The position numbers were made by a program, and so were the translations under genes. Under the pieces are notes generated by a model that had not been told where the DNA came from, did no database searches, and saw only the letters and a list, made by a program, of their open reading frames with translations. From positions 496 through 64,495 of the forward strand of contig JBMDXA010000167.1 in NCBI GenBank assembly GCA_048594725.1: DNA of 64,000 bases, read 5' to 3'. This document shows, piece by piece, positions 6,279 through 43,383 of the stretch; positions within the stretch are counted from its first letter, which is position 1; every line of letters begins with the position of its first letter. The DNA is from Candidatus Kapaibacteriota bacterium. Lineage in GTDB: Bacteria > Bacteroidota > Ignavibacteria > OLB7.

Positions 6279-6296
6279 GTAGATATTTCGGGCCTT

Positions 6297-7134: not shown

Positions 7135-7135
7135 A

Positions 7136-7522: not shown

Positions 7523-7964
7523 GGCTGGCCTGCCGGTATAGAGTGTTGCACGTTGGCTGTTGCTACCAAACGTCGATGAGGCGAATTTACGTAGAACTGA
7601 TGACGCATATCCGCCCCTTTCAGTTCCGCCTCCCTATCCGGTTCCAACTTTTCTTGTGCCGCACCATAGCGGGCGGCTAATCGTCGTTACCCCGATACCG
7701 GTACGGGAAGGGTCTATCACGACAGGAGATTTCCCCATCGGTTTAGCCCCGCTTTCTTTTCATGTCCTCGGAGATGAATCTTTCTCCGGTGCCTGATGTG
7801 GATAGAGAATGTGGAAAAGGGGATAACAATGCCCGGTTATCCACACCGGAAGAGGGGGAACTGGCCGAAGGCCCACCGGGGGAGTCAACAGTGTTTTCCA
7901 CTGGAGAGTTCCTGCGCTGTTCCACATCCATGGCCGGATATGCCGGAATGCTTTTCAAGAGATT

Positions 7965-9317: not shown

Positions 9318-9350
9318 CTTCATGTTCCACGTGAAACTTTCTATCTGTCT

Positions 9351-11171: not shown

Positions 11172-11209
11172 AGAGTGAATGAACGGGACCGACATGCAGG
11201 AGAACATTC

Positions 11210-11253
11210 AGAGAGCCGCTACAGAATTTCCTCAGGGGATATAGCGGCTCTCT
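11210..11253. other. Perfect 12-bp inverted repeat (AGAGAGCCGCTA ... TAGCGGCTCTCT) with 20-nt loop, downstream of mnmG
   Basis: Read directly from the sequence; no U-tract follows. Could be an intrinsic terminator variant or a protein-binding palindrome. Confidence 0.3.
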
Positions 11254-11406
11254 CGCTAATCCGTTGTACTTTCAGTCTTCCCCGTATTGGTGGTCGGATC
11301 GGAAATTATCTTCGAAAAAGAGCCGTAATCGCCGTATTGTTTCACGTGGAACTTTTCGTCAAGTCATTGAACCAGCGTGAATTCCATTCCTGTCAGAGAT
11401 AAACGT

Positions 11407-27509: not shown

Positions 27510-30206
27510 ATGCTGAACCGCTTTTATCATGCAACGATTCTGGCCTGCTTCCTTCTGGCTCCCCTGGCAGGAGTGCAGGCGCAGCAGGGACTGCGATTGA
27601 TTCGCCCGAACGGCGGCGAGACGTTGAACGTTGGGACCAGCGCTCTGATTACATGGGAGGGAATGCCATCGAATACTCCGGTTTCATTGCACTATAGCCC
27701 CAACGGCGGCGCCAACTGGGTGCTGATCGCCAACACGGTGGAGGGGGGACAGTATGCATGGGATGTGCCCAACATGCCCAGCACCCAGTGCCTGGTTCGC
27801 GTGCGATTCAATGCCGAAGAGACCATTACGACGACGAAAGTGCATAACGGCGAGGTGAACGGGGCGGTCTATAATACCAGTGGAACGCAGTTCGTTACCG
27901 CCGGGGGCGACAACCTCGCCAAGATCTGGACCTCCACCGGAGAGCTTGTGCATTCCCTGAAGGGGCATAGCGATGCGGTGAACTGGGCCACGTTCAGCCC
28001 GGATGGATCGCTCGTGGCAACGGCAAGCGACGATCATACCGCAAGAATCTGGAATGCCTCCACCGGCTCGTTGCTGCATACGCTGGGTGATAGCGTCGCC
28101 ATCCGCTCGGTGGCGTTCAGTCCCGATGGAAGCCAGGTGATAACCGCGGGCGAGGACGGCATCGCCAAGATCTGGAACGCAAGCACCGGAGGGCGCCTCC
28201 AGGTGCTGAACGGCCATACCGGTGCGCTCAATGGGGTATCGTACAGCCCCGATGGTAGGCTGATCGTCACTGCAAGTGCCGATAACACCGCGAAGATCTG
28301 GAATGCGGAGACCGGTATTCTTCTCCATACCCTGACTGGCCACACCGATCAGGTCAACTCGGCCCGTTTCAGCCCCGATGGGAATCTTCTGGTGACCGCG
28401 AGCCGGGATAAGAGCGCACGAGTCTGGAGTGTGGTTCAGGGTGTGTACCTGAACACGCTTGGCGGCGGTACTCATCCCGACTGGGTATGGAACGCCTCCT
28501 TCAGTCCGGACGGGAGCCAGATCGTGACGGCCTGCGGTGATGGAAAAATGAGGTTGTATACCACCGGAACCATGCACCTGCATACGTTCGCCGGTCATAC
28601 CGGTGATGTGAAATCTGCGGAATTCAACCGGTCGGGGAACCGGATCATCACCGCCGGGCAGGATACCTACGTGAGAGTCTGGGATATCAAGTCGACCGAT
28701 CAGGAGGATATCTCCGATACGGTATTCACCATCTTCCGTCCTCCGCTGCGAGTTCTCAAACCGAATGGAGGGGAGGGACTGGTGCCGGGGACCACCTCGA
28801 TCATCGAGTGGGAGGGAACCGCTGTCGCCGAGCCGGTGACGCTCCAGTACAGCACCAACAACGGGGCGCAGTGGAACAGCGTTGCCGAGGCGGCGGTGGG
28901 ATTGGGATATGCATGGCGTGTCCCCAGCACCATCAGCAATTCCTGTCTGATGCGTGTTGCCACGGGGGTGAAGCCTATCTCGACCGTGCTTTCGTTCGAG
29001 GCGCACCAGGCCTGGATCAACGCCGCGGCCTTCAGCAAGGATGGAGAACGGTTCGCCACCGCAAGCGACGATGCCACCGCCAGAGTCTGGTCCACCGATG
29101 ACGGCGCCTTTCTCTTTTCTCTGGCCGGCCACACCGACGATGTCTGGTGGGCGGCATTCAGCTATGATGGGGCCTTTATCGCCACGGCCAGCGCCGATCG
29201 TAACGTCAAGATCTGGAACGCTGCCAATGGGCAGCTGATACGCACCCTTACCGGCCATACCAGCGGCGTGGAGTATGTGGAATTCAGCCCCGATGGAAGG
29301 CTGCTGGCAACGGCAAGCGAGGATCGTACGGTGAAGATCTGGGACGTGAGCGATGGCTCGGTGGTGAGAACGATTTCCGGCCACAGCAATGGCGTGTATG
29401 CGGTGACGTTCAGCCCGGACGGCAGCCTGATTGCCACGGCAAGCAGAGATAAGACCGTGAAGCTCTGGAACGCCGAAACCGGAGCTCTGATCCGCATCTT
29501 CGGCAGGCATACCGATCAGGTCCATTCCGTCCGCTTCAGCCCCGATGGGAAACGCCTGGTCACCGGATCACGGGACAATACCGCTAAAGTCTGGGATCTG
29601 GAGACCGGAGAGGAGTATTTCACCATGACCGGACATACGGATTGGATCTGGCGGGTGTCCTATAATCCCAGCCAGACCTTGATAGCAACGGCCGGCCGGG
29701 ATGGCACCGCCAGATTGTGGAATGCCACGACGGGCGAGCTTCTGCAGACGTTGCGCGGGCATACATCCGATGTGGGGGCTGCGGAATTCAATGCCGACGG
29801 CTCCCTGCTGCTTACCGCCGCCAACGATAAATACGCGAAAGTCTGGGGCATTCTGAACGATTTCCGGGAAAGCGATGTCTCCGACGCTCTCTGGTCTATC
29901 GTTCCTCCTGCTTCGGTGCGCACCGGGGAAGGTGATGAGTTGGCCGGCACTGGTCTGTACCAGAATCATCCCAACCCGGTGCGGGGCATTACCTCGATAG
30001 GATATGATGTGACGATGGCCGGCGGGGTGGAACTGGTGGTTACCAGCGCTCTGGGCGAGCGCATCGCAACGCTGGTAGGAGAGGAACAGGAGGCCGGCCA
30101 CCATACCGTCCGGTTCGATGCCACCGATGTTCCGTCGGGCATCTACTTCTATACGCTGAGCACCCCATCCGGCCGGACAACCAGACGGATGGTTGTGGAG
30201 CATTGA
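27510..30206 (+). CDS. Secreted double WD40 beta-propeller protein with Por/T9SS C-terminal sorting domain
   Basis: Signal peptide, then an internal duplication. Each half is an ~75-aa beta-sandwich module ('LRLIRPNGGETLNVGTSALITWEG...' / 'LRVLKPNGGEGLVPGTTSIIEWEG...') followed by 7 WD40 repeats ('GH...V....FSPDG..l.TAS.D.TA.IWN'). The C-terminal ~80 aa '...GIYFYTLSTPSGRTTRRMVVEH' match the T9SS CTD. Confidence 0.85.
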   Translation: MLNRFYHATILACFLLAPLAGVQAQQGLRLIRPNGGETLNVGTSALITWEGMPSNTPVSLHYSPNGGANWVLIANTVEGGQYAWDVPNMPSTQCLVRVRFNAEETITTTKVHNGEVNGAVYNTSGTQFVTAGGDNLAKIWTSTGELVHSLKGHSDAVNWATFSPDGSLVATASDDHTARIWNASTGSLLHTLGDSVAIRSVAFSPDGSQVITAGEDGIAKIWNASTGGRLQVLNGHTGALNGVSYSPDGRLIVTASADNTAKIWNAETGILLHTLTGHTDQVNSARFSPDGNLLVTASRDKSARVWSVVQGVYLNTLGGGTHPDWVWNASFSPDGSQIVTACGDGKMRLYTTGTMHLHTFAGHTGDVKSAEFNRSGNRIITAGQDTYVRVWDIKSTDQEDISDTVFTIFRPPLRVLKPNGGEGLVPGTTSIIEWEGTAVAEPVTLQYSTNNGAQWNSVAEAAVGLGYAWRVPSTISNSCLMRVATGVKPISTVLSFEAHQAWINAAAFSKDGERFATASDDATARVWSTDDGAFLFSLAGHTDDVWWAAFSYDGAFIATASADRNVKIWNAANGQLIRTLTGHTSGVEYVEFSPDGRLLATASEDRTVKIWDVSDGSVVRTISGHSNGVYAVTFSPDGSLIATASRDKTVKLWNAETGALIRIFGRHTDQVHSVRFSPDGKRLVTGSRDNTAKVWDLETGEEYFTMTGHTDWIWRVSYNPSQTLIATAGRDGTARLWNATTGELLQTLRGHTSDVGAAEFNADGSLLLTAANDKYAKVWGILNDFRESDVSDALWSIVPPASVRTGEGDELAGTGLYQNHPNPVRGITSIGYDVTMAGGVELVVTSALGERIATLVGEEQEAGHHTVRFDATDVPSGIYFYTLSTPSGRTTRRMVVEH

Positions 30207-30301: not shown

Positions 30302-31849
30302 TTACTTGGTGACCGTCATCGTCTTGGTCTCCGAGAAGCTCCCTCCCACCAGACGGTAGAGATAGAGACCGCTCGGCAGATCGCGCGCGTCGCAGGTTAC
30401 CGAGTGGGTGCCGGCGGGGACCACCTCATCCTTCAGCACCTTTACCGGCTTGCCGGCAGCGTCGAACACCGTAAGGGTGACATGCTCCTCCTTCGGCACC
30501 ACGAAATTGATCGTGGTGGATTCGGAGAAGGGATTGGGGCGATTGGCCTCCAGAGTATACCCGGCACTGCTCGACGATGCGGCCGCCATCTCAGTGGCCG
30601 TGGGCACATCGGAGGTGCCCCCGCTCAGGGTATCCACCTTCCTGCCGCGTGCCATCGTAATCACCACCATGCTCGTTGTCACCTTCGGGGAGCTGCTGTC
30701 GTGATAGACCTTGATGAGCATCTGTTCGTTGGACCCATCCTGAAGGCGGAGCGAGTCGTTGCCGATCAGGATGAGGTTGTTTCCCAGCGTGAACGGTGCC
30801 ATCGTGGTCTGGGAAGGGGGAACCGGGAAATCGGCAAGATCGGTTCCTTCGCTGCTGAACGAACGGATATAGATCGTCCTGCTGCTCTTCTCTCCGTCGG
30901 TATCCTTGAACTTTCTGATGATGATCTGGCTGGAGCCTGCCGAGAGGCCTCCCTGAGCCGCAGGCTCCGCCGAGTCGCTCGTGGAGATCACCACCACACG
31001 ATCTTCCCGCTTCCAGATATCGTTGCTGCCCGGATGGTTTCCTTCCAGAACGATGGTCTCGCTGTTCTGCCCTCCGTATGCCGATGGCGAGGTCTTGCAG
31101 GCTACCGAGATATTCTTGCACTGGTCCGGGACAGCACCATGTCCCATCACCACGATATGATGCCGCTCTCCATTCTCATCCTTGTCCACGCTCACCCTGA
31201 CACTGGGGAGGGTGAAATTGACCGCGGAAAAGCTCGGGTTGATCTGCTTCAGCGATTCGCGGGCGCTCTGGAGCGCCTGTTCGGCCTGGAGGAGCGATTC
31301 CCGGAGCGCTGCGGTATCGCCGTTCATCTGGGACTCCATCTTCCGCAGTTCGCGGTTTTTTACGCGGATATCGCGTTCGATACGGCGCACGTCGCGCTGC
31401 ACTTCCCGCGCGGCCCGGGCGCTCTCGCGGACCTTGAGGATCTCTTCGCGGATCTGGTGCTGAAGCGAGTCCATGGTATTGATGGAGATTCCTTCCGGGA
31501 GCATTTCAAACTCCGTTGCATCGAGCTGGAACTCCTTGGCGTCCAGCTCGAAATCACTGGCATCGAGCTCGAAGTCGTGCGCATCCAGCTGGAAGTCCGT
31601 TGCATCGAGTTCAAACTCCTTAGCATCCAGCTCAAATTCCTTTGCATCGAGTTCGAATTCCAGGGCATCGGCCTCGAATTCCCGTGCATCGGCTTCGATG
31701 TCGGCGGGGTCCAGCGGCGGCAGGGGAGGCAACGGCGGCACCGCTACCGATGGCGGGGCAGGGGGAGTCGGGGTCTCGGTTGTCTGCGCTGCCAGCGGCA
31801 GGGCTGAAAGGATGGCTATCCCTACTGGAAGCAATTTGTTGATGTTCAT
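30302..31849 (-). CDS. Secreted acidic octad-repeat / coiled-coil protein with T9SS C-terminal sorting domain
   Basis: Start taken at 'MNINKLLPVGIAILSALPLAAQ' (signal peptide). Pro-rich segment, then ~9 tandem 8-aa acidic repeats ([ED]F[EQ]LDAxx, e.g. 'EFELDAKEFELDAKEFELDATDFQLDAHDFELDASDFELDAKEFQLDATEFE'), then a coiled-coil 'REVQRDVRRIERDIRVKNRELRKMESQ'. C-terminal T9SS CTD '...LPSGLYLYRLVGGSFSETKTMTVTK'. Confidence 0.7.
   Translation of the reverse strand: MNINKLLPVGIAILSALPLAAQTTETPTPPAPPSVAVPPLPPLPPLDPADIEADAREFEADALEFELDAKEFELDAKEFELDATDFQLDAHDFELDASDFELDAKEFQLDATEFEMLPEGISINTMDSLQHQIREEILKVRESARAAREVQRDVRRIERDIRVKNRELRKMESQMNGDTAALRESLLQAEQALQSARESLKQINPSFSAVNFTLPSVRVSVDKDENGERHHIVVMGHGAVPDQCKNISVACKTSPSAYGGQNSETIVLEGNHPGSNDIWKREDRVVVISTSDSAEPAAQGGLSAGSSQIIIRKFKDTDGEKSSRTIYIRSFSSEGTDLADFPVPPSQTTMAPFTLGNNLILIGNDSLRLQDGSNEQMLIKVYHDSSSPKVTTSMVVITMARGRKVDTLSGGTSDVPTATEMAAASSSSAGYTLEANRPNPFSESTTINFVVPKEEHVTLTVFDAAGKPVKVLKDEVVPAGTHSVTCDARDLPSGLYLYRLVGGSFSETKTMTVTK
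31505..31700. repeat. Tandem 24-bp DNA repeats (~8-9 copies) encoding the acidic octad repeats
   Basis: Visible periodicity on the plus strand: 'gcatcgagctggaactccttggc gtccagctcgaaatcactggc atcgagctcgaagtcgtgc gcatccagctggaagtccgtt gcatcgagttcaaactcctta gcatccagctcaaattccttt gcatcgagttcgaattccaggg ...'. Confidence 0.7.
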
Positions 31850-32020
31850 CGCGCGTACCTCCCTGTTGGATCTAGGGTCGTTTGTTGACTGACTGCTGTT
31901 TTCCACGTTTGGAGCTTGTGACGGAGCCTATGGCCGTGATGTTCCGTTGAAAATCGGTGTGGAACATCTTTGCATCCGCTCCGTCCTAAAGCGCGATTGT
32001 ATGTGTAAACTATTCCATCC

Positions 32021-32719
32021 ATGGACCTAGTCACCGGTAACGCGGCTGTTTTGGACTATATAGACGGGTTCCGAAGCGAACAGCCAGTAGGGAATGGGCC
32101 GGTGGTCCATTCCGTACGGGAACGGGATCGCGTTGCCTCGCTTGGCGATGCCGAGCTGGTGAGTGAATGCCTGGAAGGGAGTTCCCTTGCGTTCAACGAA
32201 CTGGTGGTGCGGTATCGCGCGAAAGTGGTTCGCCTGATCGCCTCCACACTCGGGCAGGATGCGGAGATAGAGGATTTCGCCCAGGATATCTTCGTGAAGG
32301 TCTATCTTTCCCTCGGAAAATTCCGCGGGGATTCCTCCTTCTCCACCTATCTCTATACGGTGACGGTGAACCGTTGCCGCGACGAGCTTCGCAAGACCAA
32401 ACTCCGTAAGTTCTTCTCCTTCGACGAGTGGTTCTCCTCCAGCGACGGTGCCGCGCATCTTTCGCAGGAGGAGGAGCCGGAGATCGAGGGGAACGAGCGT
32501 CGCAGCGCCGTCCGCTCGGCCATGAAGCGGCTCCCCTCCAACACCCAGATGCTGCTGCATCTGCGCGAGGTGGAGGAGCTGAGCTACAAGGAGCTGGCCG
32601 ATATCTTCGAGGTGGAGATCGGCACGATCAAATCCCGGCTCGCCCGGGCGCGTGACCGTCTTCGCGAGGCACTGTATCCCTATATCAATGATGGGACGCT
32701 GCCGGGAGAGAGGAAGTAG
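32021..32719 (+). CDS. ECF-family RNA polymerase sigma factor (sigma-70 region 2 and region 4)
   Basis: Region 2 'FNELVVRYRAKVVRLI...QDIFVKVY' and region 4 HTH 'LREVEELSYKELADIFEVEIGTIKSRLARAR'. The N-terminal ~45 aa of the track ORF may not be translated. Confidence 0.85.
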   Translation: MDLVTGNAAVLDYIDGFRSEQPVGNGPVVHSVRERDRVASLGDAELVSECLEGSSLAFNELVVRYRAKVVRLIASTLGQDAEIEDFAQDIFVKVYLSLGKFRGDSSFSTYLYTVTVNRCRDELRKTKLRKFFSFDEWFSSSDGAAHLSQEEEPEIEGNERRSAVRSAMKRLPSNTQMLLHLREVEELSYKELADIFEVEIGTIKSRLARARDRLREALYPYINDGTLPGERK

Positions 32720-32857
32720 GATGATCGTAACGCTAACCATACCGAAAACATCGGCCGGGCATCAGACGTCAGATCTTCTCTGTTGCTTCGGAACCGGCTT
32801 GAGAATGAACGTGCACAACAGATTATCGACCGTAGCAGACGAAGGCTCAATGTCATC

Positions 32858-34411
32858 ATGAGTTATAACCTTTCCAATACCGAACGAACGCTTCTCTCTG
32901 CGTACCTCGATGGCGAGATCTCCGCCACCGAACGGGTACAGGCGGAGCAGTTGCTGACGCGTTCGGAGGGAGCACGGGCATACCTGAACGAGATTCGGGC
33001 GGTCCATGATCTCTCGGGAAGCGTTCTGACGGGGACTTCCATTCTGGAGGGGAGCAGCGGTGCTCCGTTCTCTGCCAAACTTTCCGGAAAGGCTATCGAG
33101 GCCGCTGCGGAGAAAGCTATCTACTCGAAAGCCGTGGCCCTGGGTTCGTGGGGGCTTGCCGGAGTTGCCGGCGTGGCTGCCGTTGCCGTTGGAATGGTGC
33201 TCTCGGTGGCTACTCCCTCACGCCCGGTTGCCGGCAACACTTCTCCGCGTCCCGTTCCGCAATCCAGAACCATGACGGCGCCGGAGGTAACTGCCACGGC
33301 ACCCGTGATCGATCTGGATACGAGCAATCTGCTGGTGTCGCCGATGACCCCATCCGATCTTTTCGCCTTCGCCGTGGATGGCACGCTCCCCATCAAGTCG
33401 ACCAAGGGGAGCTATATCACCCTGGCGCCGCAGGGAAAGGCATCGATGGCGCTTGAAGTACACGCCGATGCCCCGGAGGATATCTCCGAACGTCTCCTCT
33501 CGTTCGATGCCCCCGCCCTGGCGATGTTCGATTCCATCCAGCGGGTGGTGCGTACCTCGCTGTTGCAGTATTCCAACGAGCGGATAGCGCTTCGCGCCGA
33601 TCTGCAATCGCTTCGCCTTGGCGTCATCCGCTCGTTCGAACGGGCGGCACCCCATATGCCGATGGAGATCCGCGAGCGGCTGGACCGCTCCCGCATGCAG
33701 ATCGCGGCGGTGCAGCGGAGCTTCGGCGGGGGAGAGATCGGGGTAGGCGGAACCGGGGGACCGGGAGAGGGAAATGAAGACCAGATCCCCTATCTGCTGG
33801 TATCGTTCGGGGGAACCGGCGACCAGATGCATCAGTTCGATCCTCCCGATGAGCGGATCATCTTCAATGTGAGCGAACCGGCTGTGCTGATCGACCAGCG
33901 GTCGCTGGTGGCGTTGCAGCGTATGGTGCCCGCCCCGCCGGTGATCCCATTCTTCGCCGATGCCGATGATGCGCGGGAGACGCTGAATGTCAGCCCGGTG
34001 GGGATGCGTCCGCGTAGCAAGGTGAAGCGTTATACGGTTTCGGCCAGCGAACAGCAAGGGCTGCAGGAGCGGGACAACATCATGTCGCCGAATGGTCTTT
34101 TTCCGATTCCCCCTCAGGGTGCGAATCCTCCGGCAAGCCCCATCAGGGTGCAGGAAGGGCAATCCGATATCGTGCGGATGAGAGAGGCGCTTCAGCGTGC
34201 CGATGAGGCCGTGCGCCGTGCCGATAGCATCATGCAGCGGATGAGAAAGGAACTGGAGATCAAGGTGAGAAGCGAGGGGAGGGGCAATACCATCCGGTTG
34301 GATGGCTATAATGGCCGCATAGAGATGAACGGCTCGCTGAATGTGGAAGATAGCGGGACGAATGATGGTCCCCGGATCAATCCCGGTGATACTGATAAGG
34401 ATGATGAATGA
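32858..34411 (+). CDS. Anti-sigma factor (zinc-finger/RsiW-type N-terminal domain, single TM, large periplasmic domain)
   Basis: Start at 'MSYNLSNTERTLLSAYLDGEISATERVQAEQLL' (canonical anti-sigma N-terminus), TM 'AVALGSWGLAGVAGVAAVAVGMVLSVA', then a ~380-aa extracytoplasmic region. Sits immediately downstream of the ECF sigma gene. Confidence 0.65.
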   Translation: MSYNLSNTERTLLSAYLDGEISATERVQAEQLLTRSEGARAYLNEIRAVHDLSGSVLTGTSILEGSSGAPFSAKLSGKAIEAAAEKAIYSKAVALGSWGLAGVAGVAAVAVGMVLSVATPSRPVAGNTSPRPVPQSRTMTAPEVTATAPVIDLDTSNLLVSPMTPSDLFAFAVDGTLPIKSTKGSYITLAPQGKASMALEVHADAPEDISERLLSFDAPALAMFDSIQRVVRTSLLQYSNERIALRADLQSLRLGVIRSFERAAPHMPMEIRERLDRSRMQIAAVQRSFGGGEIGVGGTGGPGEGNEDQIPYLLVSFGGTGDQMHQFDPPDERIIFNVSEPAVLIDQRSLVALQRMVPAPPVIPFFADADDARETLNVSPVGMRPRSKVKRYTVSASEQQGLQERDNIMSPNGLFPIPPQGANPPASPIRVQEGQSDIVRMREALQRADEAVRRADSIMQRMRKELEIKVRSEGRGNTIRLDGYNGRIEMNGSLNVEDSGTNDGPRINPGDTDKDDE

Positions 34412-34460
34412 TCCTCCGGCGATGCCGGGGAGCGAGCATGGAGCTTCGAAACGATACAGG

Positions 34461-34487
34461 AAAGGGCGCCCTCTGGGCGCCCTTTCG
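34461..34487. terminator. Bidirectional terminator (anti-sigma gene and convergent arsI-like gene)
   Basis: Perfect hairpin AAAGGGCGCCC-tct-GGGCGCCCTTT. Confidence 0.6.
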
Positions 34488-34642
34488 CATTGATGCAGTG
34501 CGGTTCCGGCCGGAGATGCTCAACAGTACGGCCCCGTCCCTCCTGCTACCGGCCGTGGATACCGCGGCCGAACCGCCTATCCCGGAATTCATCGTCCGGA
34601 TTTGCAGCGATGGCCCGATATATCGATGCCGATCTCTCCTTC

Positions 34643-35188
34643 CTAGCAGCAGTCCGAGCCCGGAGTACAGGCGGGCGCCTGGCCCACCTCTATCATCACC
34701 GGCTGGAAGCGAGGGGCGATCGCATCATTGGTGTCATTAGTTCCTGTGGCCGCCTCTGCGGAATCGCCGCAGCAGACCGGGATTTCCGGCAGGTTATCCT
34801 CCAGCACCACAAAGACCTCCCATTCGTAGCCGTCCGGATCAAACGCCCAGGTCTTGTCCTGCACCGCATAACAGCATTCGGTTCCCATCTCATCCCTGGT
34901 ATCCAGACCGGCCGCCCTCCACCGTTCCCGTATCGCCAGCACATCCTCGGTGGAAGCCACCTGGATGCCCAGATGGGAGAGCGCCCCCTGCTCGCGCACC
35001 GGATGTTCGTTCAGCGCCAGATTGAGCGGCGGATTCTGTACGTCGAACTTCGCATATCCGGTGCGCACCTTCGCCGGCTCTATGCCGAACATCGTCCGGT
35101 AGAACTGGATGCTCCGTTCCACGTTGCTGACATTCAAAGAGATATGAGCCTTCAAGGCCCTTACCTCTCGTTCTCCGGTAGTCGTCAT
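34643..35188 (-). CDS. arsI: ArsI/CadI-family VOC (glyoxalase/extradiol dioxygenase-fold) protein: putative C-As lyase
   Basis: Close pattern match to characterised ArsI (e.g. '...SLNV.......FY..lFG.EPAKVR.GYA.F.........L.L.E........L.HLGi.V......V......r...AGL.T..E....CC.AVQDK.W...P.G..WEV'). This includes the vicinal Cys pair 'ECCYAVQDKTW' that binds As(III) in ArsI. Extra Cys-rich C-terminal tail 'PVCCGDS...APACTPGSDCC'. Confidence 0.75.
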   Translation of the reverse strand: MTTTGEREVRALKAHISLNVSNVERSIQFYRTMFGIEPAKVRTGYAKFDVQNPPLNLALNEHPVREQGALSHLGIQVASTEDVLAIRERWRAAGLDTRDEMGTECCYAVQDKTWAFDPDGYEWEVFVVLEDNLPEIPVCCGDSAEAATGTNDTNDAIAPRFQPVMIEVGQAPACTPGSDCC

Positions 35189-35379
35189 GCGCTTCTCTCC
35201 TTATATATGGATAGGCATATTTGTTTCGGGACCAACGTACGGAATGTTCTTATAGATGTAAAAGCGTAGTTGCTGGCTGGCTGCGACTCCAACACTCCTG
35301 AGATGGATAAACGGTTCCGGGAGATGCTGGAACAAGGGAGCAGGAGAGGCGATAGGGGGTTCATCCTTTCCGGTGATCG

Positions 35380-38001
35380 TTATCGTGCTACGGCGCCTGC
35401 CGAGCGGGGGACCGGCGTGGCTTCCGCCGTTTCCTTATCCACCCGCACCACCATAAGCGTGATATCGTCGTTCTGCTCGGCCGGGCCCCGGAACGATTCC
35501 ACATGAGTGAGGATGCGGTTGCGGAGAACCTCCACGGTGGTATCGCTGGCGGCTCCGGAGATGATATCGTGCAGCCGTCCCTCGCCGAACTCCTCGCGAC
35601 GAGTGTTCATCGCCTCGGAGACGCCATCGCTGTAGAGGATGAACGTCTCTCCCGGCTCGTATTCCACGGTGTACTCCTGAAGCAGTTCGCCGAACAGTTC
35701 CCTGGAACAGAGCCCGAGCGCCACCCCGGTGGGCACCAGCGCATCCACCGCCGAGCGGTTCCGCCGGATGATGGGGGTGTGCCCCGCCCGGGCGAAGCTG
35801 ACGCTTTTGCGGGTGGTATCGAACAGCAGCATCGTGGCGGTGATGAACGATCCCCGCGCCATCACCTCGAACAGATGTTCGTTCAGCGTGGTAAGGATCT
35901 CCTTGGGAGATTTCAGCATGCCGCAGGCCACATGCACCATGCCGTGAAACTCCGCCATATAGAGCGATGCCGGCAGCCCCTTGCCGGAGACATCGGCCAC
36001 GATCACCATGAACCTGTCGTCGGCCATCCGGAGCACATCGTAATAATCGCCTCCTACGGCCTGTGCCGGCTGCGATACCGCGCTCACCGAGATGCCGGGG
36101 ATCTTCGGCATCTCCGCCGGCAGAAGACTTTCCTGAATCCGGCGGGCGGTAGCCAGCTCCTCGCGATAACGCTGGCGGGCCAGTTCCTCCTCGTACAGCC
36201 GGGCCACTTCCAGAGCGGCTGCGGTCTGCCCGGCCACTCCGGCGATAAAGGATGTCTGGCTTCCGCTGAGTGCCTCCCCGTCCCTGGTGCGGCTCATCAG
36301 AATGGCGCCGATCACCCGTCCCTGCGCATACAGCCCGATCACATAGGGGAAATGGGATCGTAGATCGGTAAAGCCTGGATCGGTGATGGTATCGAGCGAT
36401 GTAAGATTATGGGTCTGGCGAAGAAGATGCCGGAGCGCCTCGATGGCTTCGTCGTGAACCGGAACCGGCGCAAACTCGCTGGCGCGGGCCATTGGCTTCA
36501 GCTCGCCGTCGAAGGAGTCTTCCACCACCACGCACACCCCGCGCAGTTCCAGCCCCTGCTGGAGCGTCACGGCCGTGAGCATCGCCACCGCTTCGGCGCC
36601 CACGGTCTCGGTGATCTGCGCGGCAAAGGCTCCCAGATGCCCCGAATAATCGCGGCGTTGCGGGAAAAATCTATTCTCGATCGCCGTCTGCACGCGCCGC
36701 TTCACCGGCTCGAACAGCAGCAGGAAAAGGACGAAACTGAACACCTCCACCGATCCCTCGAACACCTCGCCGGTGAGCGCCCCCAGGGCTTGTCCCACGC
36801 CATATCCCACCGCCAGGTAGAGTCCGGCGATCAGCGCCATGGTGGCGGTATAGACCAGCGTGGTTTTCACCACGCGACGGAAATCCATCACCTGATAGCG
36901 GAAGATGGCGTAGCCGAAGGAGATCGGCAGGGCCAGCAGCAGCAGCAGCGGGAGCAGATACTGCGGGTAGAGGATGGCGATATCGGCCACGGCGGTCTGG
37001 ATCACCGTGATATAAAACAGCGCCAGGCTGGCAAGGATCGTCCCCACCAGAATGACCGTCATCGCACGGCGATCGGCGGAGGCGGGCATCCGTTTATAAC
37101 CACGGAACAGAGACCACACCCCCCCGCCGAACAGGAGCGCGCTGATGCCGATGTTAATATAATTGATCTTCTGGAAGAGCCCCGCCGGCAGGTCGAGCGG
37201 GATCAGATAGGCGGCGATGGAAAGGAGCGGGCAGAAGATGAGAAATCCCGCCGTGGCATAGAGCGCCACCCTGGAACGCCCGCTGCTGAATGTCTGCTGG
37301 TCGATCGGAAAGACCGTGCAGAAGTAGAGCCAGAGGGGGAAGAAGCATGATCCCGCGATCACCCAGAGCACCCCCACTACCAGGCCGATCGCCGATTCGG
37401 TGATATTCAGCGGCGGCACCGTAAAGGCGAAGATCACCAGCGCGGCGGTAAAGAAGAACTGCCGCTGCACCAGGCCATGCGGCCGGGTGAGCGCCACCAT
37501 CACGCCGATCACCAGCCAGAGCAGGGCAAAAGCGGGGGCCAGGAGAGGGAAGAAGAGAAACTGCTTGGTAAGGACGATGCGGAGGTCATGGAGCTCTCCC
37601 CGGCGCTCTACCACATAGGGGATCTCCACATCGACCGGGGAGCTGCGCAATGCCTGCTGCGCGTGCATCAGCAATCGCTCCTCCTCCGCCGGATGAACCA
37701 GCGGTATGAGCTGATCGCCGATCTGAAGCACGCGATCGCCTATCATCACCCCTGCCTTATCGGCATTTCCCCCCGGAATCACCTTGGTTACCACCAGACC
37801 CAGCCGTCCATTAACCTCCCGGGTATGCCACAGACAGTCGTCGGTGTGGAGCACGGTGTTCTTGAAGCCACGGGTCATCGTCACGATGATGGCGATCAGT
37901 GCCACCAGCGCTATCAGCGAATAAAGGAGACGGAGGTGCTGGTCGGAGGGATGTCGAAGTCTCTGCAATGAGATCGGTATCAGGCGTTTCATAGTGGTCA
38001 T
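35380..38001 (-). CDS. Membrane sensor phosphatase: N-terminal TM anchor, periplasmic PDZ domain, 7-TM region, GAF-like domain and PP2C (SpoIIE/RsbU-type) phosphatase domain
   Basis: PDZ 'GLVVTKVIPGGNADKAGVMIGDRVLQIGDQ'; multiple hydrophobic helices across residues ~150-420; PP2C motifs 'GGDYYDVL...FMVIVADVSGKGLPASLYMA' and '...FILYSDGVSEA...NDDITLMVVRV'. Confidence 0.8.
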   Translation of the reverse strand: MTTMKRLIPISLQRLRHPSDQHLRLLYSLIALVALIAIIVTMTRGFKNTVLHTDDCLWHTREVNGRLGLVVTKVIPGGNADKAGVMIGDRVLQIGDQLIPLVHPAEEERLLMHAQQALRSSPVDVEIPYVVERRGELHDLRIVLTKQFLFFPLLAPAFALLWLVIGVMVALTRPHGLVQRQFFFTAALVIFAFTVPPLNITESAIGLVVGVLWVIAGSCFFPLWLYFCTVFPIDQQTFSSGRSRVALYATAGFLIFCPLLSIAAYLIPLDLPAGLFQKINYINIGISALLFGGGVWSLFRGYKRMPASADRRAMTVILVGTILASLALFYITVIQTAVADIAILYPQYLLPLLLLLALPISFGYAIFRYQVMDFRRVVKTTLVYTATMALIAGLYLAVGYGVGQALGALTGEVFEGSVEVFSFVLFLLLFEPVKRRVQTAIENRFFPQRRDYSGHLGAFAAQITETVGAEAVAMLTAVTLQQGLELRGVCVVVEDSFDGELKPMARASEFAPVPVHDEAIEALRHLLRQTHNLTSLDTITDPGFTDLRSHFPYVIGLYAQGRVIGAILMSRTRDGEALSGSQTSFIAGVAGQTAAALEVARLYEEELARQRYREELATARRIQESLLPAEMPKIPGISVSAVSQPAQAVGGDYYDVLRMADDRFMVIVADVSGKGLPASLYMAEFHGMVHVACGMLKSPKEILTTLNEHLFEVMARGSFITATMLLFDTTRKSVSFARAGHTPIIRRNRSAVDALVPTGVALGLCSRELFGELLQEYTVEYEPGETFILYSDGVSEAMNTRREEFGEGRLHDIISGAASDTTVEVLRNRILTHVESFRGPAEQNDDITLMVVRVDKETAEATPVPRSAGAVAR

Positions 38002-38395
38002 CGCGATTATAACATCATGCCCTGAACCGGAAACAGGTTCTTCCAGAGATGGACGAAGGGAAACAGGAATATTCCCCGGCGAGAAAAATACTCAGAAGAG
38101 AGCCGGGAAACTCCGGAAAAAAGAAGAGGAACCGATGGCAGGAAGACGGCCTACACTACGTACGATTGATCGCTTCTTCCCTGTGGATGAGAAATAGTGT
38201 CCGGAGTCGTCCCGCCGGTTGCAGCAGGGGCGGTTTCAGCGGGCCTGGGGGGATCGGGGTGGGAGGATGGCCTGGAATCAGGATGAAGAGTATCCGGAAT
38301 GATGAGATGGCATTCCGCCACGGGCTATCGGTAACGGATCACTGCCAGAGTGGCAGCGTACTTCCGTCTGCATCGCGATGGCGATGGGTATCCTG

Positions 38396-39412
38396 TTACG
38401 CCACCGCCCCTCCGCAGGAGCTGCCGGCCCCGGCGGTGCAGCCGAAGCAGTGGTCGGCAAACACGATCCGCCGTCCCAGCACCGCATCGAAATTCCAGTC
38501 GAAGATGGAGCGCGGAACATCGCCGGCCAGAGGAAGATCGAGCATCTGGTTGAAATCGCAGTCGGAGAGGCGCCCGTCGTAATCCACGCTGATGAGGGTG
38601 CGGCACATGATCCCCTGCGCCGCCGCCGGATTGAATGCGGCTACCAGCTTGCTCATGTACTCCTCGTAACCGCCATGCCGGAGCAGATCCTCCTTGAAAC
38701 GGTGGATCGGCATGTTGGTGATCGTATAGAGATTGTTGAAGACCAGGCCGAACTTCTGCTTCAGTTCCCGCTTGTAATCGGCCTCCAGCGACGATTGCGA
38801 TGCCGGCAGGAAGGAGCCGACGGGATTATAGACCAGGTTGAGGAGAAGCCCCGATTCCGGCACCCCGTAGCCTATCGCGTTGAGCCGGCGAATCGCCTCT
38901 ATCGATTTCTCGAAAACCCCGCGCCCGCGCTGTTTATCGGTGAAATACTGGGAATAATAGGGGAGGGAGGAGATCACCTCGCACTGATGCCGGGCAAAGA
39001 ATTCCGGGAGATATTCCATCCCCCCATCGCTTTTCGGGGCACCGTCGAACTGCACGGTAAGGTTGTGCCGTACCATCACATGCCTGCCCAGCCGCCGCGC
39101 CTCGGCCACCAGCCATTCGAAGTTCGGGTTCAGCTCCGGGGCGCCGCCGGTGATATCCAGCTTGCCGATCTGCGGATGGGCCGCAAGCACCGCTATCACC
39201 CGCTCGGCCGTGCGTCTGTCCATCATCTCGGTCCTGACGGGCGAGGCATCCACATGGCAGTGGCGGCAGGCCTGGTTGCAGAGCTTCCCCACATTGATCT
39301 GAAGCGTCTCTATCGAAAGGGGATGCAGATCGAGCCCCTGCTCGGCCACCGTGCCGCCGAAATTGAAACGGCGGGGCTCCGGGATCGGGTTGTTGATGAC
39401 TTCCAGGTTCAT
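38396..39412 (-). CDS. arsS: Radical SAM / Cys-rich domain protein of the ArsS (arsenosugar-biosynthesis rSAM, TIGR04167-like) family, all-Cys (non-selenoprotein) form
   Basis: 338 aa. rSAM cluster motif 'CNQACRHCHVDASP' near residue 45. C-terminal Cys-rich motif 'HCFGCTAGAGSSCGG' is the hallmark of this family. No in-frame TGA. Confidence 0.65.
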   Translation of the reverse strand: MNLEVINNPIPEPRRFNFGGTVAEQGLDLHPLSIETLQINVGKLCNQACRHCHVDASPVRTEMMDRRTAERVIAVLAAHPQIGKLDITGGAPELNPNFEWLVAEARRLGRHVMVRHNLTVQFDGAPKSDGGMEYLPEFFARHQCEVISSLPYYSQYFTDKQRGRGVFEKSIEAIRRLNAIGYGVPESGLLLNLVYNPVGSFLPASQSSLEADYKRELKQKFGLVFNNLYTITNMPIHRFKEDLLRHGGYEEYMSKLVAAFNPAAAQGIMCRTLISVDYDGRLSDCDFNQMLDLPLAGDVPRSIFDWNFDAVLGRRIVFADHCFGCTAGAGSSCGGAVA

Positions 39413-39514
39413 GAATGGTTCGGTACGGTCTGGGATGGAGGAAGAGAAGGGGAGCAGCCGCAGGGATGGTTCCGGATGCTGCTCCCGACGGTCATCGTTA
39501 CGGATGGGAGGGGG

Positions 39515-39850
39515 TTATGCCCCCACCTTCTCCAGCACGTTGAGCATCTGCACACCGTGTACCAGCGATGCGCCGCCACGCACGGCGGCCACCACATGCA
39601 GCGCCTCGGTCATCTGTGCCGGATCGGCGCCAGACTCCAGACAGCCGGTGGTGTAGGCATCGATACAGTAGGCGCACTGGATGGTATGAGCCACCGCAAG
39701 ACCGATCAGCTGCTTCTCGCGCTTGGTGAGAGCGCCGTCGGTACCGGTAGCCATGCCGTAGTACTCGAAGAACTTGTCCATCAACTCCTTGTTGTGGGTG
39801 CCTACCTCGGCGAAACGGGAGAGATCGGAGGACTCGTAATAATTAGCCAT
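39515..39850 (-). CDS. AhpD/carboxymuconolactone-decarboxylase-like peroxidase-fold protein (the usual partner of ArsS-family rSAM proteins)
   Basis: 111 aa with the AhpD-core CxxC 'IQCAYCIDAYTTGC' and 'KREKQLIGLAVA'. Lies immediately upstream and co-directional with the rSAM gene. Confidence 0.7.
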   Translation of the reverse strand: MANYYESSDLSRFAEVGTHNKELMDKFFEYYGMATGTDGALTKREKQLIGLAVAHTIQCAYCIDAYTTGCLESGADPAQMTEALHVVAAVRGGASLVHGVQMLNVLEKVGA

Positions 39851-40076
39851 GGATGAATTCAGGATATGCGTTACAGGATAAGCTGCCGGTTCCGGTGCTC
39901 CATGTCCGTGATGGACGGATTGCAGCCGGTTTCCGGCAAGGGACGAACGCGATGGCCGCGATCGTTTGAACGATCATAGGTAGAGCCCCCATAGGAGCGA
40001 CGTGCCGGACGGCTTCCACCAACGCCGGGGATATATTCACCCGGATGGGAGCATCAGGCGTATCACTGCCGGCGGA

Positions 40077-40838
40077 TCATTTCCTGGTGACCTGGACGTT
40101 CTCGAAGCGGATCTCGAAACTTCCATCGGGGGCCGTCTTGCGAAGCGAGAGTTTCACCGGCCCGAACTGCCGGTAATCGGTCCAGAGAAATTCTCCCTCG
40201 CGCCCGCTCTGAAGCAGAAACCGCCATCGTTCCACCAGCTTGGTGGCCGGATCGATATAGAGCCAGTAGCGGTCGCCGGGGGTAAGCCCCACGTTGCCGA
40301 ACGAGAGCTGAAGGGTCTGGAAGGTCCGGCCGCCGATAAGAGTATCGTGGCCGCGCCGGTGGTGTACGCCGGCATCCAGCAGCTTGAACGGCATCAGCAG
40401 CCAGTAGCTGTCGTTGATGAAACGCCCGTATCCCATCTCCAGCATCGCCTTGCCCGCCGAATCGGCCACCAGCGAGCCATTGACCGTCGCCGATCCGGTT
40501 TTTTTGCCGATATCGGAGAAATTCACCGTCCAGTTTCTCCCCTCCTTATCTTTTCCGTTGAGGATATAGGTATCCGACCGGCGGTTCCAGATGTGCGAGA
40601 AGCGGGATGCCTCGGCACCATCCCGCACGGCCACGAAATCGAACGAGATATTCCAGTTCCTGTCGTTCCAGGCGGCCGGTCCACCCACGGCGGCCATCAC
40701 CTCCTCGGCAAGCGTTCTCCCCTCCAGTTCCTGCTGCGATGGCCCTCCGCCGGTTCCGGGAGATTCCGACGGCTGGGCCAGAAGCGGAGCTGCGGCGATG
40801 ATGAACAGGAGCGCGCGGAGGAGCATGGGTGCTGGCAT
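40077..40838 (-). CDS. Hypothetical secreted protein
   Basis: Signal peptide 'MPAPMLLRALLFIIAAAPLLAQ'; no recognisable domain. Confidence 0.45.
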   Translation of the reverse strand: MPAPMLLRALLFIIAAAPLLAQPSESPGTGGGPSQQELEGRTLAEEVMAAVGGPAAWNDRNWNISFDFVAVRDGAEASRFSHIWNRRSDTYILNGKDKEGRNWTVNFSDIGKKTGSATVNGSLVADSAGKAMLEMGYGRFINDSYWLLMPFKLLDAGVHHRRGHDTLIGGRTFQTLQLSFGNVGLTPGDRYWLYIDPATKLVERWRFLLQSGREGEFLWTDYRQFGPVKLSLRKTAPDGSFEIRFENVQVTRK

Positions 40839-41096
40839 TGTGGAGTAGTTCTACGATCCTGGGTAGAGTGCCTGGGAGGCTCCTCGTATTCCTCTGCGGG
40901 AGGGGAGGAGCTGCAGGAGGGAACAGAGTTCCCGGTATCGGCGTCTACATGAAGTGCCGGTTCGGATGGCGCTCTGGCGCCGCCGGGGTTCCGGCTTGTG
41001 GTCTCCGGAAGATACGGTGGATGAGCGATATCCGCCGCAGGCGCTCCCTGCGGGAGCCCCCCGCGAAGGGGGGCCATATCGTACCGGTGCGTCCTG

Positions 41097-41630
41097 CTAC
41101 TGAAAACCCATCGCCTGTTTTTCTTCGGTCTGCGGGTTTTTTGCCTCAAGGATCAGCTCCGCAAATTCCCGGAACGCCCCATGGCCTCCCGGACGGCGGC
41201 AGACATAATGAGCAACCTCGCGAGTTTTCGGGAAGGCATCGGCGGGGCAGGCGGCAAGGCCCACCAGCTTCATCACCTCGATGTCGTTCACATCGTCGCC
41301 GATGTAGGCTATCTCCTCGGTCTCGTACTTATGCTGCTCGATGATCTGGCGAAGAATGGAGGGTTTGTCCTGGCAGAGAAGGTGCACCATCTCGATGTGC
41401 AGTTTCTCCGCCCGTTTGACTACCGACTCCGATTTCTCCCCGGTAACGATACCGACCTCGATGCCGGCCTCCCGAAGCCGCTCCACTCCCATCCCATCGC
41501 GGATGCTGAAGCGCTTCATCACCTCGCCATCCTGGCCGTAATAGACGCCGCTGTCGGTCAGGACGCCGTCGACGTCGGTAAGAACCAGGCGTATTTTCGC
41601 CGCCCGTTCGTTGATATTCGTGATATTCAT
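41097..41630 (-). CDS. kdsC: 3-deoxy-D-manno-octulosonate 8-phosphate phosphatase (HAD, KdsC family)
   Basis: 'IRLVLTDVDGVLTDSGVYY', 'VGIVTGEKS' and 'AYIGDDVNDIEVMKLVGLAACPADA' match KdsC. Start at MNITNINER; the track ORF is 45 codons longer. Confidence 0.8.
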   Translation of the reverse strand: MNITNINERAAKIRLVLTDVDGVLTDSGVYYGQDGEVMKRFSIRDGMGVERLREAGIEVGIVTGEKSESVVKRAEKLHIEMVHLLCQDKPSILRQIIEQHKYETEEIAYIGDDVNDIEVMKLVGLAACPADAFPKTREVAHYVCRRPGGHGAFREFAELILEAKNPQTEEKQAMGFQ

Positions 41631-41973
41631 GAGAAATTCTGCTGCGTTGAATGCGTTCCCGGCATCCGGAACCGGTATCCGGGAAAAACCGGGCGTGTAC
41701 CATGCCGGCATGGCCGCATGGCGGCGGGGCGCAATCTGCCACAAGTTTTTCCTATAACCTTGCACAGCCCTCCTGCGCCTATACTTTCATGGAGCCGTAG
41801 TCGTCAGTTCAGAAGCCGTTGTGCGCTCCATGGTAATTATGGGTTGATGCAACCTGGTGGCACGGGGTTACGTCCGGTAACAAACCGGTCATATGTTAGT
41901 ATATTCTTCCGCGCTTCAGGCGTACCACCGCCGCATAAACGGCGGATCAAACATCGAACGATTCTTCCAAACT

Positions 41974-43383
41974 ATGCCTCGATCGTTGAATGGAATTCCG
42001 ATCCGTCCTCACGGACGATCTCTGGCGTTTCTCGCGCTCCTGTTTCTGGCATCGCTCCTTCCGGCTGACGCGCAGATAAAACGCGCTCCCGAGAAGGAGT
42101 TCTCGCGATTCACCCTTCCGAACGGTCTGGAAGTGATCGTGGTGCAGAACAATTTCGTTCCCATCGCCACCATCGAGCTTGCCGTGCGCAATGGCTCCTT
42201 TACCGAGGGGCCGGAGTACGCCGGGCTGTCGCACCTGTATGAACATATGTTCTTCAAGGCGAATGGCAAGTATCAGTCCTCCCAGGATTTCATCTCCACT
42301 CTCAGCTCGCTCGGCATTCTCTATAATGCCACCACGCGCGAGGAAGTGGTCTACTACTACTTCACCCTTCCGGTTGCAAATCTGGAAAAGGGACTGGAGG
42401 TGATGGCGAATTCCGTGCAGACCCCGTTGTTCGATCCGCTGGAGCTGGAGCGGGAGCGGGAGGTGGTGCTTGGGGAGTTCGACCGCCAGGAATCCAACCC
42501 CTTCTTCCCCTACAGCCGTGCCATGGATTCGGCGATGTGGGGGGAGAATGTGGTGCGCAAGCAGCCGATCGGGCAGCGGGACGTTATCAAGACCGCCACT
42601 CCCGAGAAGATGCGGACCATCCAGCATAAGTATTACATCCCGAACAACTCCATGCTGATTGTGGCCGGTGATGTGGATTCCGCATCGGTCTACAACCTGG
42701 TCACCAAGCATTTCACCAGCTGGAAGCGGGGGACCGATCCGTTCAAGCAGGACCCGCCGCCGATGTCCAAGCCGCTCGCGGCCAAGAGGCTAGTAACCGT
42801 GCCGATCCCCGGCGTCGATATCGCGCAGGTGGAATACCAGTGGCATGGCCCTTCGGTGGGGGTGGACAACGCGGCCACCTATGCCGCCGACGTCTTCATC
42901 TTCATCCTGACGCAGCAGCAGTCGCGATTCCAGCGGAAGCTGGTGGAGAGCGGCATCGCGCAGGGGGCGGGGCTCAACTACTACACGCAACGCTATGTGG
43001 GGCCGATCTCGGCGCAGATCGTTACCACGCCGGAGCAGGCCCGCAAGGCGCTCGATGTTCTCTGGGATGAGATCCAGGCGTTCGATTCCCCCGACTATTT
43101 CACCGATGAGGAACTGGCAACCGCCAAGCAGACCCTCCGGATGCGCGCGCTCTACGAGAGCGAGGAGACCTCCGAGTGGGTGCATACCCCGTCGTTCTGG
43201 TGGAGCACCACCGGCCTGGATTATTACATGGGCTATATCGATAATCTGGCGAAGGTGAGCCGCGCCGATATCCAGAATTACGTGCGGAAGTATATCAAAG
43301 GGAAGAACTACGTGCTCGGTGTTGCAACCAATCCGGAAACGCTCCAGCGACTGAACCTGAAACCCTCGGAGGTGTTGAAATAA
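41974..43383 (+). CDS. M16 (pitrilysin) family zinc peptidase, active subunit
   Basis: Signal peptide; inverted zinc-binding motif 'HLYEH' (HxxEH) in 'AGLSHLYEHMFFKANG'; M16 N- and C-terminal domains. Confidence 0.85.
   Translation: MPRSLNGIPIRPHGRSLAFLALLFLASLLPADAQIKRAPEKEFSRFTLPNGLEVIVVQNNFVPIATIELAVRNGSFTEGPEYAGLSHLYEHMFFKANGKYQSSQDFISTLSSLGILYNATTREEVVYYYFTLPVANLEKGLEVMANSVQTPLFDPLELEREREVVLGEFDRQESNPFFPYSRAMDSAMWGENVVRKQPIGQRDVIKTATPEKMRTIQHKYYIPNNSMLIVAGDVDSASVYNLVTKHFTSWKRGTDPFKQDPPPMSKPLAAKRLVTVPIPGVDIAQVEYQWHGPSVGVDNAATYAADVFIFILTQQQSRFQRKLVESGIAQGAGLNYYTQRYVGPISAQIVTTPEQARKALDVLWDEIQAFDSPDYFTDEELATAKQTLRMRALYESEETSEWVHTPSFWWSTTGLDYYMGYIDNLAKVSRADIQNYVRKYIKGKNYVLGVATNPETLQRLNLKPSEVLK

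Follow-up and report, generated by a model that had tools for sequence, protein, structure and literature searches.

Probable juxtaposition of three independent gene units at a Kapabacteria locus encoding an ArsI-type protein, a sensor phosphatase and the AhpD-ArsS pair

Introduction

Enzymes of the ArsI family cleave the C-As bond of trivalent organoarsenicals using Fe(II) and O2. A gene for a protein of this type occurs in a 64-kb stretch of contig JBMDXA010000167.1 from a Candidatus Kapaibacteriota bacterium (hereafter the window, meaning all 64,000 nucleotides analysed), where it lies near genes for a membrane sensor phosphatase, for the radical S-adenosylmethionine (SAM) enzyme ArsS and for a small AhpD-like protein. 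Here we describe these four genes and compare them with the closest known systems.

ArsI has been described from Bacillus sp. MD1 and from Thermomonospora curvata (PDB 5C4P). The Bacillus enzyme has a His5-His62-Glu115 triad and a Cys96-Cys97 pair, while in T. curvata the triad is Gln8-His65-Glu117 and the second shell consists of Tyr38, Gln103 and Lys105 (residue roles from PMC12607644). ArsS adenosylates dimethylarsenite (DMAs(III)) to 5'-deoxy-5'-dimethylarsinoyl-adenosine (DDMAA; PMC13598754), and in Synechocystis sp. PCC 6803 its gene and arsM are reported to be transcribed together (Xue et al., as cited in bioRxiv 10.1101/2022.09.23.509062). ArsS and its AhpD-like partner form a known conserved pair in NCBIfam (TIGR04167 and TIGR04169), which names the partner an "arsenosugar biosynthesis-associated peroxidase-like protein"; some members of TIGR04167 are selenoproteins, with selenocysteine in a GxxU motif (PMC13188914). 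For the phosphatase, the described counterparts are PP2C sensor phosphatases of the RsbU/SpoIIE type.

An earlier note on this DNA had viewed the four genes as a possible organoarsenical-processing module under membrane-signal control. We arrive at a different reading, to which we assign a probability of roughly 0.78: three independent units have come to lie next to each other, much as by chance, in one Kapabacteria lineage (Chlorobiota; Fibrobacteres-Chlorobi-Bacteroidetes (FCB) group). The first unit would consist of the ahpD-like gene and arsS, whose product would transfer a 5'-deoxyadenosyl group to dimethylarsenite with the help of a [4Fe-4S] cluster and SAM. The resulting formation of DDMAA would be the first committed step towards arsenosugars, with ArsM encoded elsewhere or the substrate drawn from the environment. 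The second would be a clade-specific PDZ/multi-transmembrane (multi-TM)/PP2C sensor phosphatase that belongs with a convergent pair of extracytoplasmic function (ECF) sigma factor and anti-sigma genes. The third would be a detoxification cassette, arsI-arsC, that arrived by horizontal transfer and sits where the phosphatase and anti-sigma genes meet 3' to 3'; the arsC that accompanied arsI would since have decayed to a 68-bp remnant.

Results and discussion

Layout of the four genes and their co-occurrence in relatives

The earlier note had placed four co-directional minus-strand genes in this stretch, and the corresponding open reading frames (ORFs) are found there:

34643-35188, minus strand: ArsI-type protein of the vicinal oxygen chelate (VOC) fold, C-As lyase-like, 181 amino acids (aa), with a Cys-rich C-terminal tail (NF041414)
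35380-38001, minus strand: membrane sensor phosphatase with candidate PDZ, multi-TM, GAF-like and PP2C/SpoIIE regions, 873 aa (PF07228)
38002-38395, no strand: intergenic stretch of 394 bp between the ArsS and phosphatase genes (size of the gap)
38396-39412, minus strand: ArsS radical SAM enzyme, 338 aa, all-Cys form (TIGR04167)
39515-39850, minus strand: AhpD/CMD-like CxxC protein, 111 aa, partner of ArsS (TIGR04169, PF02627)

The stretch is loosely packed. Gaps of 102 bp (ahpD/arsS), 394 bp (arsS/PP2C) and 191 bp (PP2C/arsI) are not operon-tight, and arsI lies 3.2 kb from arsS. The 394-bp gap is probably a transcription-unit boundary; it holds a weak terminator-like hairpin at 38064-38078. 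Other terminator-like matches in the scan were weak and mostly intragenic. A sigma-70 promoter scan returned zero sites with a consensus that does not cover FCB-group promoters, and an Rfam scan of 32000-42500 at E<=1 gave two sub-threshold chance matches and nothing else. On the plus strand, long ORFs run antisense to these genes (for example 38378-39856, 492 aa, and 35503-37350); they were rejected as high-GC artefacts because the codon-position GC pattern and all homology favour the minus-strand genes.

The exact ArsS sequence of the window occurs on one Logan contig and one NCBI contig only. On the Logan contig, one of the antisense ORFs is called as a 177-aa gene, a call that has no homology support. 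The nearest genomes are metagenome-assembled genomes (MAGs) labelled Candidatus Kapaibacterium, Chlorobiota or Bacteroidetes.

To place the locus among relatives we collected 80 ArsS loci (L002-L081) with 10-kb flanks from one-genome-per-species assemblies. The four genes are not co-conserved in them, an outcome that the earlier note had itself named as refuting its proposal. Neither ArsI nor an arsC of the type found beside its closest homologue (locus L082, below) is encoded within ±10 kb of ArsS in any of the 80, including L002, the closest relative among them (79% identity in ArsS, 83% in PP2C). Only seven loci, all from one Kapabacteria clade, have the phosphatase gene within 10 kb of ArsS. 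Together with the separate arsI-arsC cassette described below, these counts speak against an organoarsenical module under membrane-signal control.

The AhpD-ArsS pair

The ArsS protein scores 422.6 bits against the NCBIfam equivalog TIGR04167 (cut-off 300) and matches the Pfam domains PF04055 (38.5 bits) and PF12345/DUF3641 (181.3 bits). Its cluster motif is C45-x3-C49-x2-C52 (CNQACRHC), and the Cys-rich C-terminal segment HCFGCTAGAGSSCGG contributes C322, C325 and C333. The C-terminal GSSC corresponds to the selenocysteine position of the GxxU motif. Identity to homologues across phyla is 65-80%. The AhpD-like protein, encoded 102 bp upstream of arsS, passes TIGR04169 (152.7 bits, cut-off 120), matches PF02627 (59.8 bits) and has a CAYC motif at residues 59-62. 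The identification of an all-Cys ArsS with a Cys-rich tail and a habitual AhpD-like CxxC partner, already made in the earlier note, is therefore sound. Purifying selection on both genes is strong: relative to L002, dN/dS is 0.094 for arsS and 0.025 for ahpD.

The locus has in common with the TIGR04167/TIGR04169 pair the passing of both cut-offs, the adjacency, the CX3CX2C motif, DUF3641, the C-terminal GxxC and the CxxC of the partner; nothing substantive differs, the window ArsS being of the all-Cys form. Unlike loci L003, L004 and L008-L012, the window has no neighbouring TIGR04282 glycosyltransferase-like gene, and no remnant of one was found between ahpD and the next gene upstream (40077-40838), which encodes a 253-aa protein. 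The ArsS of Synechocystis belongs to the same family, and the same conversion of DMAs(III) to DDMAA would be predicted from sequence for the window protein, but in Synechocystis the partner gene is a co-transcribed arsM, whereas the partner in the window is AhpD-like and the 64 kb hold no ArsM. The AhpD-like CxxC protein is most likely a thiol/disulfide redox helper of ArsS.

The absence of ArsM was established in two ways. Genes were called roughly by codon-position GC, and some 44 further ORFs across the 64 kb were scanned against Pfam; in addition, hidden Markov model (HMM) profiles for ArsM and TIGR04282 were built from related loci and searched against all six frames. None of the ~44 ORFs encodes an ArsM-type methyltransferase, ArsR, Acr3/ArsB or intact ArsC, and neither profile found a six-frame match at E<=1 in the 64 kb. 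The earlier statement that ArsM, ArsR, Acr3/ArsB and ArsC are missing thus holds for intact genes, but it overlooked a 68-bp arsC remnant at 34569-34636. The remaining ORFs have housekeeping or envelope functions: GuaA, DnaK, MnmE/G, SbcCD, ClpB, PheS, L20, Lpt, M16 peptidases, the ECF sigma factor and proteins with sorting tails of the type IX secretion system (T9SS).

We used tblastn to count which genes recur within 3 kb of ArsS and NCBIfam to annotate them. Across the 80 loci the frequent neighbours comprise AhpD-like proteins (38), TIGR04282 glycosyltransferase-like proteins (30), ArsM-family methyltransferases (29), PiT phosphate transporters (11) and MerA-like flavoproteins (6). When the comparison is limited to loci flanked by 2 kb or more on both sides (49 in total), AhpD alone is adjacent in 25, ArsM alone in 12, both in 3 and neither in 9. 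The two partners are therefore near-exclusive (Fisher p 0.0012, uncorrected for phylogeny). Since ArsM is not adjacent in 25 of the 28 AhpD-paired loci, the absent arsM is what this subtype usually shows, the window being no exception.

In a neighbour-joining tree of ArsS, the AhpD-associated sequences likewise form a superclade apart from an ArsM-associated clade, which comprises Nitrospirales, Gemmataceae/Planctomycetaceae and Bacteriovoracales. As a separate observation, the Ignavibacteriales MAG JBBIRR01 carries one ArsS locus of each type (L020 and L058).

The near-exclusive adjacency and the split of the tree could be taken to mean that the substrate of the AhpD-type pair contains no arsenic, or is an arsenical other than DMAs(III), which would also account for ArsM being usually non-adjacent. 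We consider this improbable. The window protein is far over the ArsS equivalog cut-off; ArsM is present in some AhpD-type loci (L018, L028, L030 and L037) and the "arsenosugar" gene TIGR04282 in many; and ArsM-AhpD fusions (NF041537) tie AhpD domains to arsenic methylation chemistry.

A further idea keeps arsenic as the substrate. ArsS may come in two functional flavours, and in the AhpD-paired one, to which the window belongs and in which an adjacent ArsM is usually lacking, the AhpD-like protein might itself supply the trivalent substrate, for instance by thiol-dependent reduction of dimethylarsenate (DMAs(V)) from the environment to DMAs(III). This would constitute an ArsM-independent salvage route leading from methylarsenicals in the environment to arsenosugars, which the ArsI acquired in this lineage would complement by removing methylarsenite (MAs(III)). 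The proposal is speculative and, in our estimate, rather unlikely. The near-exclusive adjacency across phyla is nevertheless the point of wider reach in our data: if it holds across the phylogeny, it raises the questions of how organisms with an AhpD-type ArsS obtain dimethylarsenite and what the AhpD-like partner does.

The phosphatase and its sigma/anti-sigma neighbours

The earlier note had described the phosphatase as a PDZ-7TM-GAF-PP2C protein. The C-terminal catalytic domain is clear (SpoIIE, PF07228, 131.3 bits in Pfam), and the length of 873 aa stands. PDZ_6 is borderline at 26.8 bits against a cut-off of 27, although homologues carry precomputed PDZ matches; GAF_3 is weak at 17.5 bits against 27; and Kyte-Doolittle hydropathy gives about 9-10 hydrophobic segments in place of seven. 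Full-length homologues form a small family of about 47 clusters, with Kapabacteria names where they are named, and source annotations call them RsbU-like. In common with RsbU/SpoIIE-type sensor phosphatases, the protein has the C-terminal SpoIIE/PP2C domain. It differs from them in its N-terminus of a putative PDZ domain and ~9 predicted TM segments, in the restriction of the family to Kapabacteria-like MAGs and in the lack of nearby partner-switching genes: Pfam scans of the window ORFs detected no STAS protein, anti-sigma-kinase partner or phospho-target encoded nearby.

Other genes around this stretch recur with it or with arsS in relatives:

32021-32719, plus strand: ECF sigma factor (Sigma70_r2 and r4 matches)
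32783-34411, plus strand: putative anti-sigma protein (position and N-terminal motif)
40077-40838, minus strand: secreted hypothetical protein, 253 aa, with a signal peptide (no Pfam or NCBIfam family)
41097-41765, minus strand: KdsC-like HAD phosphatase (TIGR01670, 151.7 bits)

The sigma and anti-sigma genes on the plus strand are convergent with the phosphatase gene on the minus strand. The product of 32783-34411 matches no Pfam or NCBIfam model, and we infer its putative anti-sigma function from position and an N-terminal motif.

The Kapabacteria clade in which the phosphatase accompanies ArsS is fully syntenic, with the order VWA, M16, M16, KdsC-like HAD, 253-aa protein, AhpD, ArsS, PP2C, anti-sigma, ECF sigma and T9SS protein. 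Within this block the ArsS/PP2C junction is variable, spanning 0.27 to 4.6 kb. It measures 0.27 kb in L002. In L003 and L004 it holds a GNAT gene, in L006 and L016 a gene for an M28-like peptidase, in L008 two ORFs and in L015 a gene for a 940-aa protein. In MAG CAYWXV01 the two sides of the junction are on different contigs. Contig 142 (L014) has HAD, the 253-aa protein, AhpD and ArsS; contig 17 (L092) has PP2C, anti-sigma, ECF sigma, T9SS, HAD and SbcCD without ArsS, and the genes upstream of its PP2C encode PAP2, lectin and PPDK. The phosphatase homologues in L091 and L093 likewise have no ArsS nearby. Synteny of PP2C with sigma and anti-sigma is retained in L002, L003, L006, L008, L016, L082 and L092. 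The variable junction, the separate contigs and the ArsS-free homologues show that the phosphatase travels with the sigma/anti-sigma genes and not with ArsS. It is a Kapabacteria-restricted gene without a demonstrable arsenic link, and would signal to the ECF sigma system or to a non-arsenic target.

These data bear directly on the idea that all four genes make up one organoarsenical-processing module controlled by the membrane sensor phosphatase. The genes are indeed co-directional and contiguous, and the PP2C-ArsS adjacency recurs in seven related loci. That adjacency, however, is confined to one clade in which the whole 20-kb block is syntenic, and it is interrupted by unrelated inserts of 0.3 to 4.6 kb. 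In CAYWXV01 the two genes lie on different contigs, and PP2C paralogues and orthologues occur without ArsS. ArsI is missing in all relatives except L082, and the partners or targets expected of such a phosphatase are not encoded nearby. We regard a single module as highly improbable.

As a separate observation, L091 encodes two tandem PDZ/multi-TM/PP2C paralogues of 868 and 897 aa (6293-11694), with no ArsS or ECF sigma factor nearby.

The ArsI-type protein

The window protein scores 160.5 bits against the ArsI_CadI_VOC model NF041414 (cut-off 116, NCBIfam) and 59.9 bits against PF00903 (Pfam). An ungapped alignment to T. curvata ArsI (5C4P) with an offset of +7 places H15, H72 and E124 at the Fe(II) triad positions, the vicinal pair C105-C106 at the arsenical-binding position and Y45, Q110 and K112 in the second shell. 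The sequence YAVQDKTW is also present, so that the ArsI-type assignment and the CC pair on which the earlier note had relied are confirmed. Triad, Cys pair, second-shell residues and Cys-rich C-terminal tail are common to all of the 120 closest ArsI homologues (120/120).

The VOC fold, the vicinal Cys pair, the second-shell Tyr/Gln/Lys and the Cys-rich tail are shared with the Bacillus sp. MD1 and T. curvata enzymes. The first triad residue is His, as in the characterized Bacillus ArsI, and not Gln as in T. curvata; the His-His-Glu triad thus makes the window protein a Bacillus-type ArsI. Judged from these residues, it is predicted to turn methylarsenite and aromatic trivalent arsenicals into arsenite.

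An arsI-arsC cassette in partial decay

Three small features adjoin the arsI gene:

34460-34486, no strand: perfect 12-bp inverted repeat GAAAGGGCGCCC/GGGCGCCCTTTC (repeat search)
34569-34636, minus strand: arsC remnant of the thioredoxin type (low-molecular-weight protein tyrosine phosphatase (LMW-PTP) family), with 5' and 3' parts deleted (blastn and tblastn against L082 arsC)
35203-35220, minus strand: operator-like motif ATATGCCTATCCATATAT, 15 bp upstream of the arsI start codon (motif match)

The closest ArsI homologue on a useful contig (P0124, locus L082) is 83% identical to the window protein. In the same locus, which comes from a very close relative, PP2C and the ECF sigma factor are 97.6% and 96.6% identical to their window counterparts at the amino acid level, and the gene order is PP2C, arsI, arsC, anti-sigma, sigma and T9SS. 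The L082 arsC is intact (3787-4236) and of the LMW-PTP type; its best model is TIGR02691, with 131 bits, under the cut-off of 174.3.

In the window, 68 bp are 86.8% identical at the nucleotide level to the middle of this arsC (blastn), with residues 55-67 matched at 85% (tblastn). The remnant directly follows the arsI stop codon. It has kept the arsC ribosome-binding site, now fused to codon ~55, and is in frame, encoding EIGIDISGHRCKS before a stop; the gene has lost both its 5' end, which is the catalytic part, and its 3' end. Beyond it, the 12-bp hairpin, which L082 shares, lies between the arsI unit and the anti-sigma gene, which converge on it, and it is likely to act as a terminator in both directions.

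In L002, the anti-sigma gene follows PP2C after 170 bp with no arsI in between. As arsI-arsC is present in L082, absent in L002 and reduced to arsI and an arsC remnant in the window, the cassette inserted between the two 3' ends once this lineage had separated from that of L002, and then partly decayed. It was probably acquired horizontally. Its insertion boundaries could not be read from the L002 and window intergenic regions, which are too diverged and share only chance 7-11-mers. A search around the arsI cassette brought up neither direct repeats at its flanks nor a transposon signature, and there is no tRNA in the window.

The remaining arsI has a dN/dS of 0.26 relative to L082; between the same two genomes, the values of PP2C and the sigma factor are 0.045 and 0.089. 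Purifying selection on arsI is thus relaxed but persisting.

Five other contexts of the same ArsI subtype (L083, L086, L088, L089 and L090), all from MAGs (two carry the label Pyrinomonadaceae or Acidobacteria), have a divergent ArsR gene (HTH_5) and carry a MIP channel, arsC and/or GNAT gene; ArsS is present in 0/5. These arsR-arsI contexts are ordinary small ars operons. Unlike them, the window arsI has no adjacent arsR, its companion arsC is only a remnant and the cassette sits between a phosphatase gene and an anti-sigma gene.

Of the ars operon context, the window retains the arsC remnant and an operator-like motif. The 18-bp motif ATATGCCTATCCATATAT has a single match in the window where 0.03 would be expected, with a pattern derived from these same sequences. 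It also occurs upstream of ArsI homologues in L082 and, within arsR-arsI intergenic regions, in L083-85 and L088. It is a conserved AT-rich imperfect palindrome, ATATGYNTNNNCAYATAT (window 35203-35220, minus strand; L082 3193-3210; L083 7921-7938; L088 6912-6929), found both in ArsR-linked operons and in the ArsR-less Kapabacteria copies. The motif may be a relic ArsR operator, a lead that draws on a pattern from the very sequences compared. The arsI gene has this motif and a ribosome-binding site of its own, and would be transcribed from its own promoter.

Two arsenic-related units side by side

The proximity of the cassette to the AhpD-ArsS pair could also reflect a loose arsenic island, in which arsI-arsC was kept beside ahpD-arsS for a benefit without forming an operon with it. 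ArsI might, for example, clear MAs(III) while methylated arsenic is channelled to ArsS, the two units being complementary. Such an arrangement is made conceivable by the 3.2 kb between arsI and arsS, by the purifying selection on ArsI (omega 0.26) and by the fact that ArsI and ArsS both handle trivalent methylarsenicals; both arsM and arsI activities are reported from Nostoc (PMC5258700). We nevertheless find it unlikely. The association is a single lineage event, with ArsI in 0/80 other ArsS loci and ArsS in 0/5 other ArsI contexts; a conserved non-arsenic gene separates the two units; the cassette is decaying and has lost arsC; and it inserted at a neutral site, between two genes that meet at their 3' ends.

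Several points weigh against a juxtaposition of three independent units. By a rough, post-hoc estimate for a single event, random insertion within ~4 kb of arsS has a chance of ~0.3% in a genome of a few Mb. The four genes are on one strand, and read-through transcription may occur. The missing arsM, arsR and efflux genes are established for the 64-kb window, and the enzymatic activities and transcription units are predicted from sequence.

As negative evidence, the locus indicates that this is not a new operon type and that an ArsI-ArsS-phosphatase system should not be inferred in annotation. It offers a worked example of two arsenic-related units coming to adjoin through an independent insertion event.

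Other features of the window

The 253-aa protein and the HAD phosphatase are syntenic with AhpD-ArsS in eight Kapabacteria loci. They form a conserved Kapabacteria block and are not arsenic genes. The gene for the 253-aa protein is conserved directly upstream of AhpD-ArsS in eight Kapabacteria loci. A single-sequence AlphaFold model of this protein has a mean predicted local distance difference test score (pLDDT) of 39.4 and is unusable.

At 30302-31906 (minus strand) the window encodes a T9SS-tailed protein of 534 aa with an acidic tandem repeat, (A/K)EFELDA, present about ten times (EFEADALEFELDAKEFELDAKEFELDATDFQLDAHDFELDASDFELDAKEFQLDATEFEM). An 898-aa protein encoded at 27510-30206 (plus strand) contains two WD40 propellers, with 13 repeats detected. 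Its tail resembles a T9SS sorting tail, with no sorting-domain match among the matches listed (25 Pfam families). It is unusual for a secreted or surface protein to combine WD40 propellers with a T9SS-like tail.

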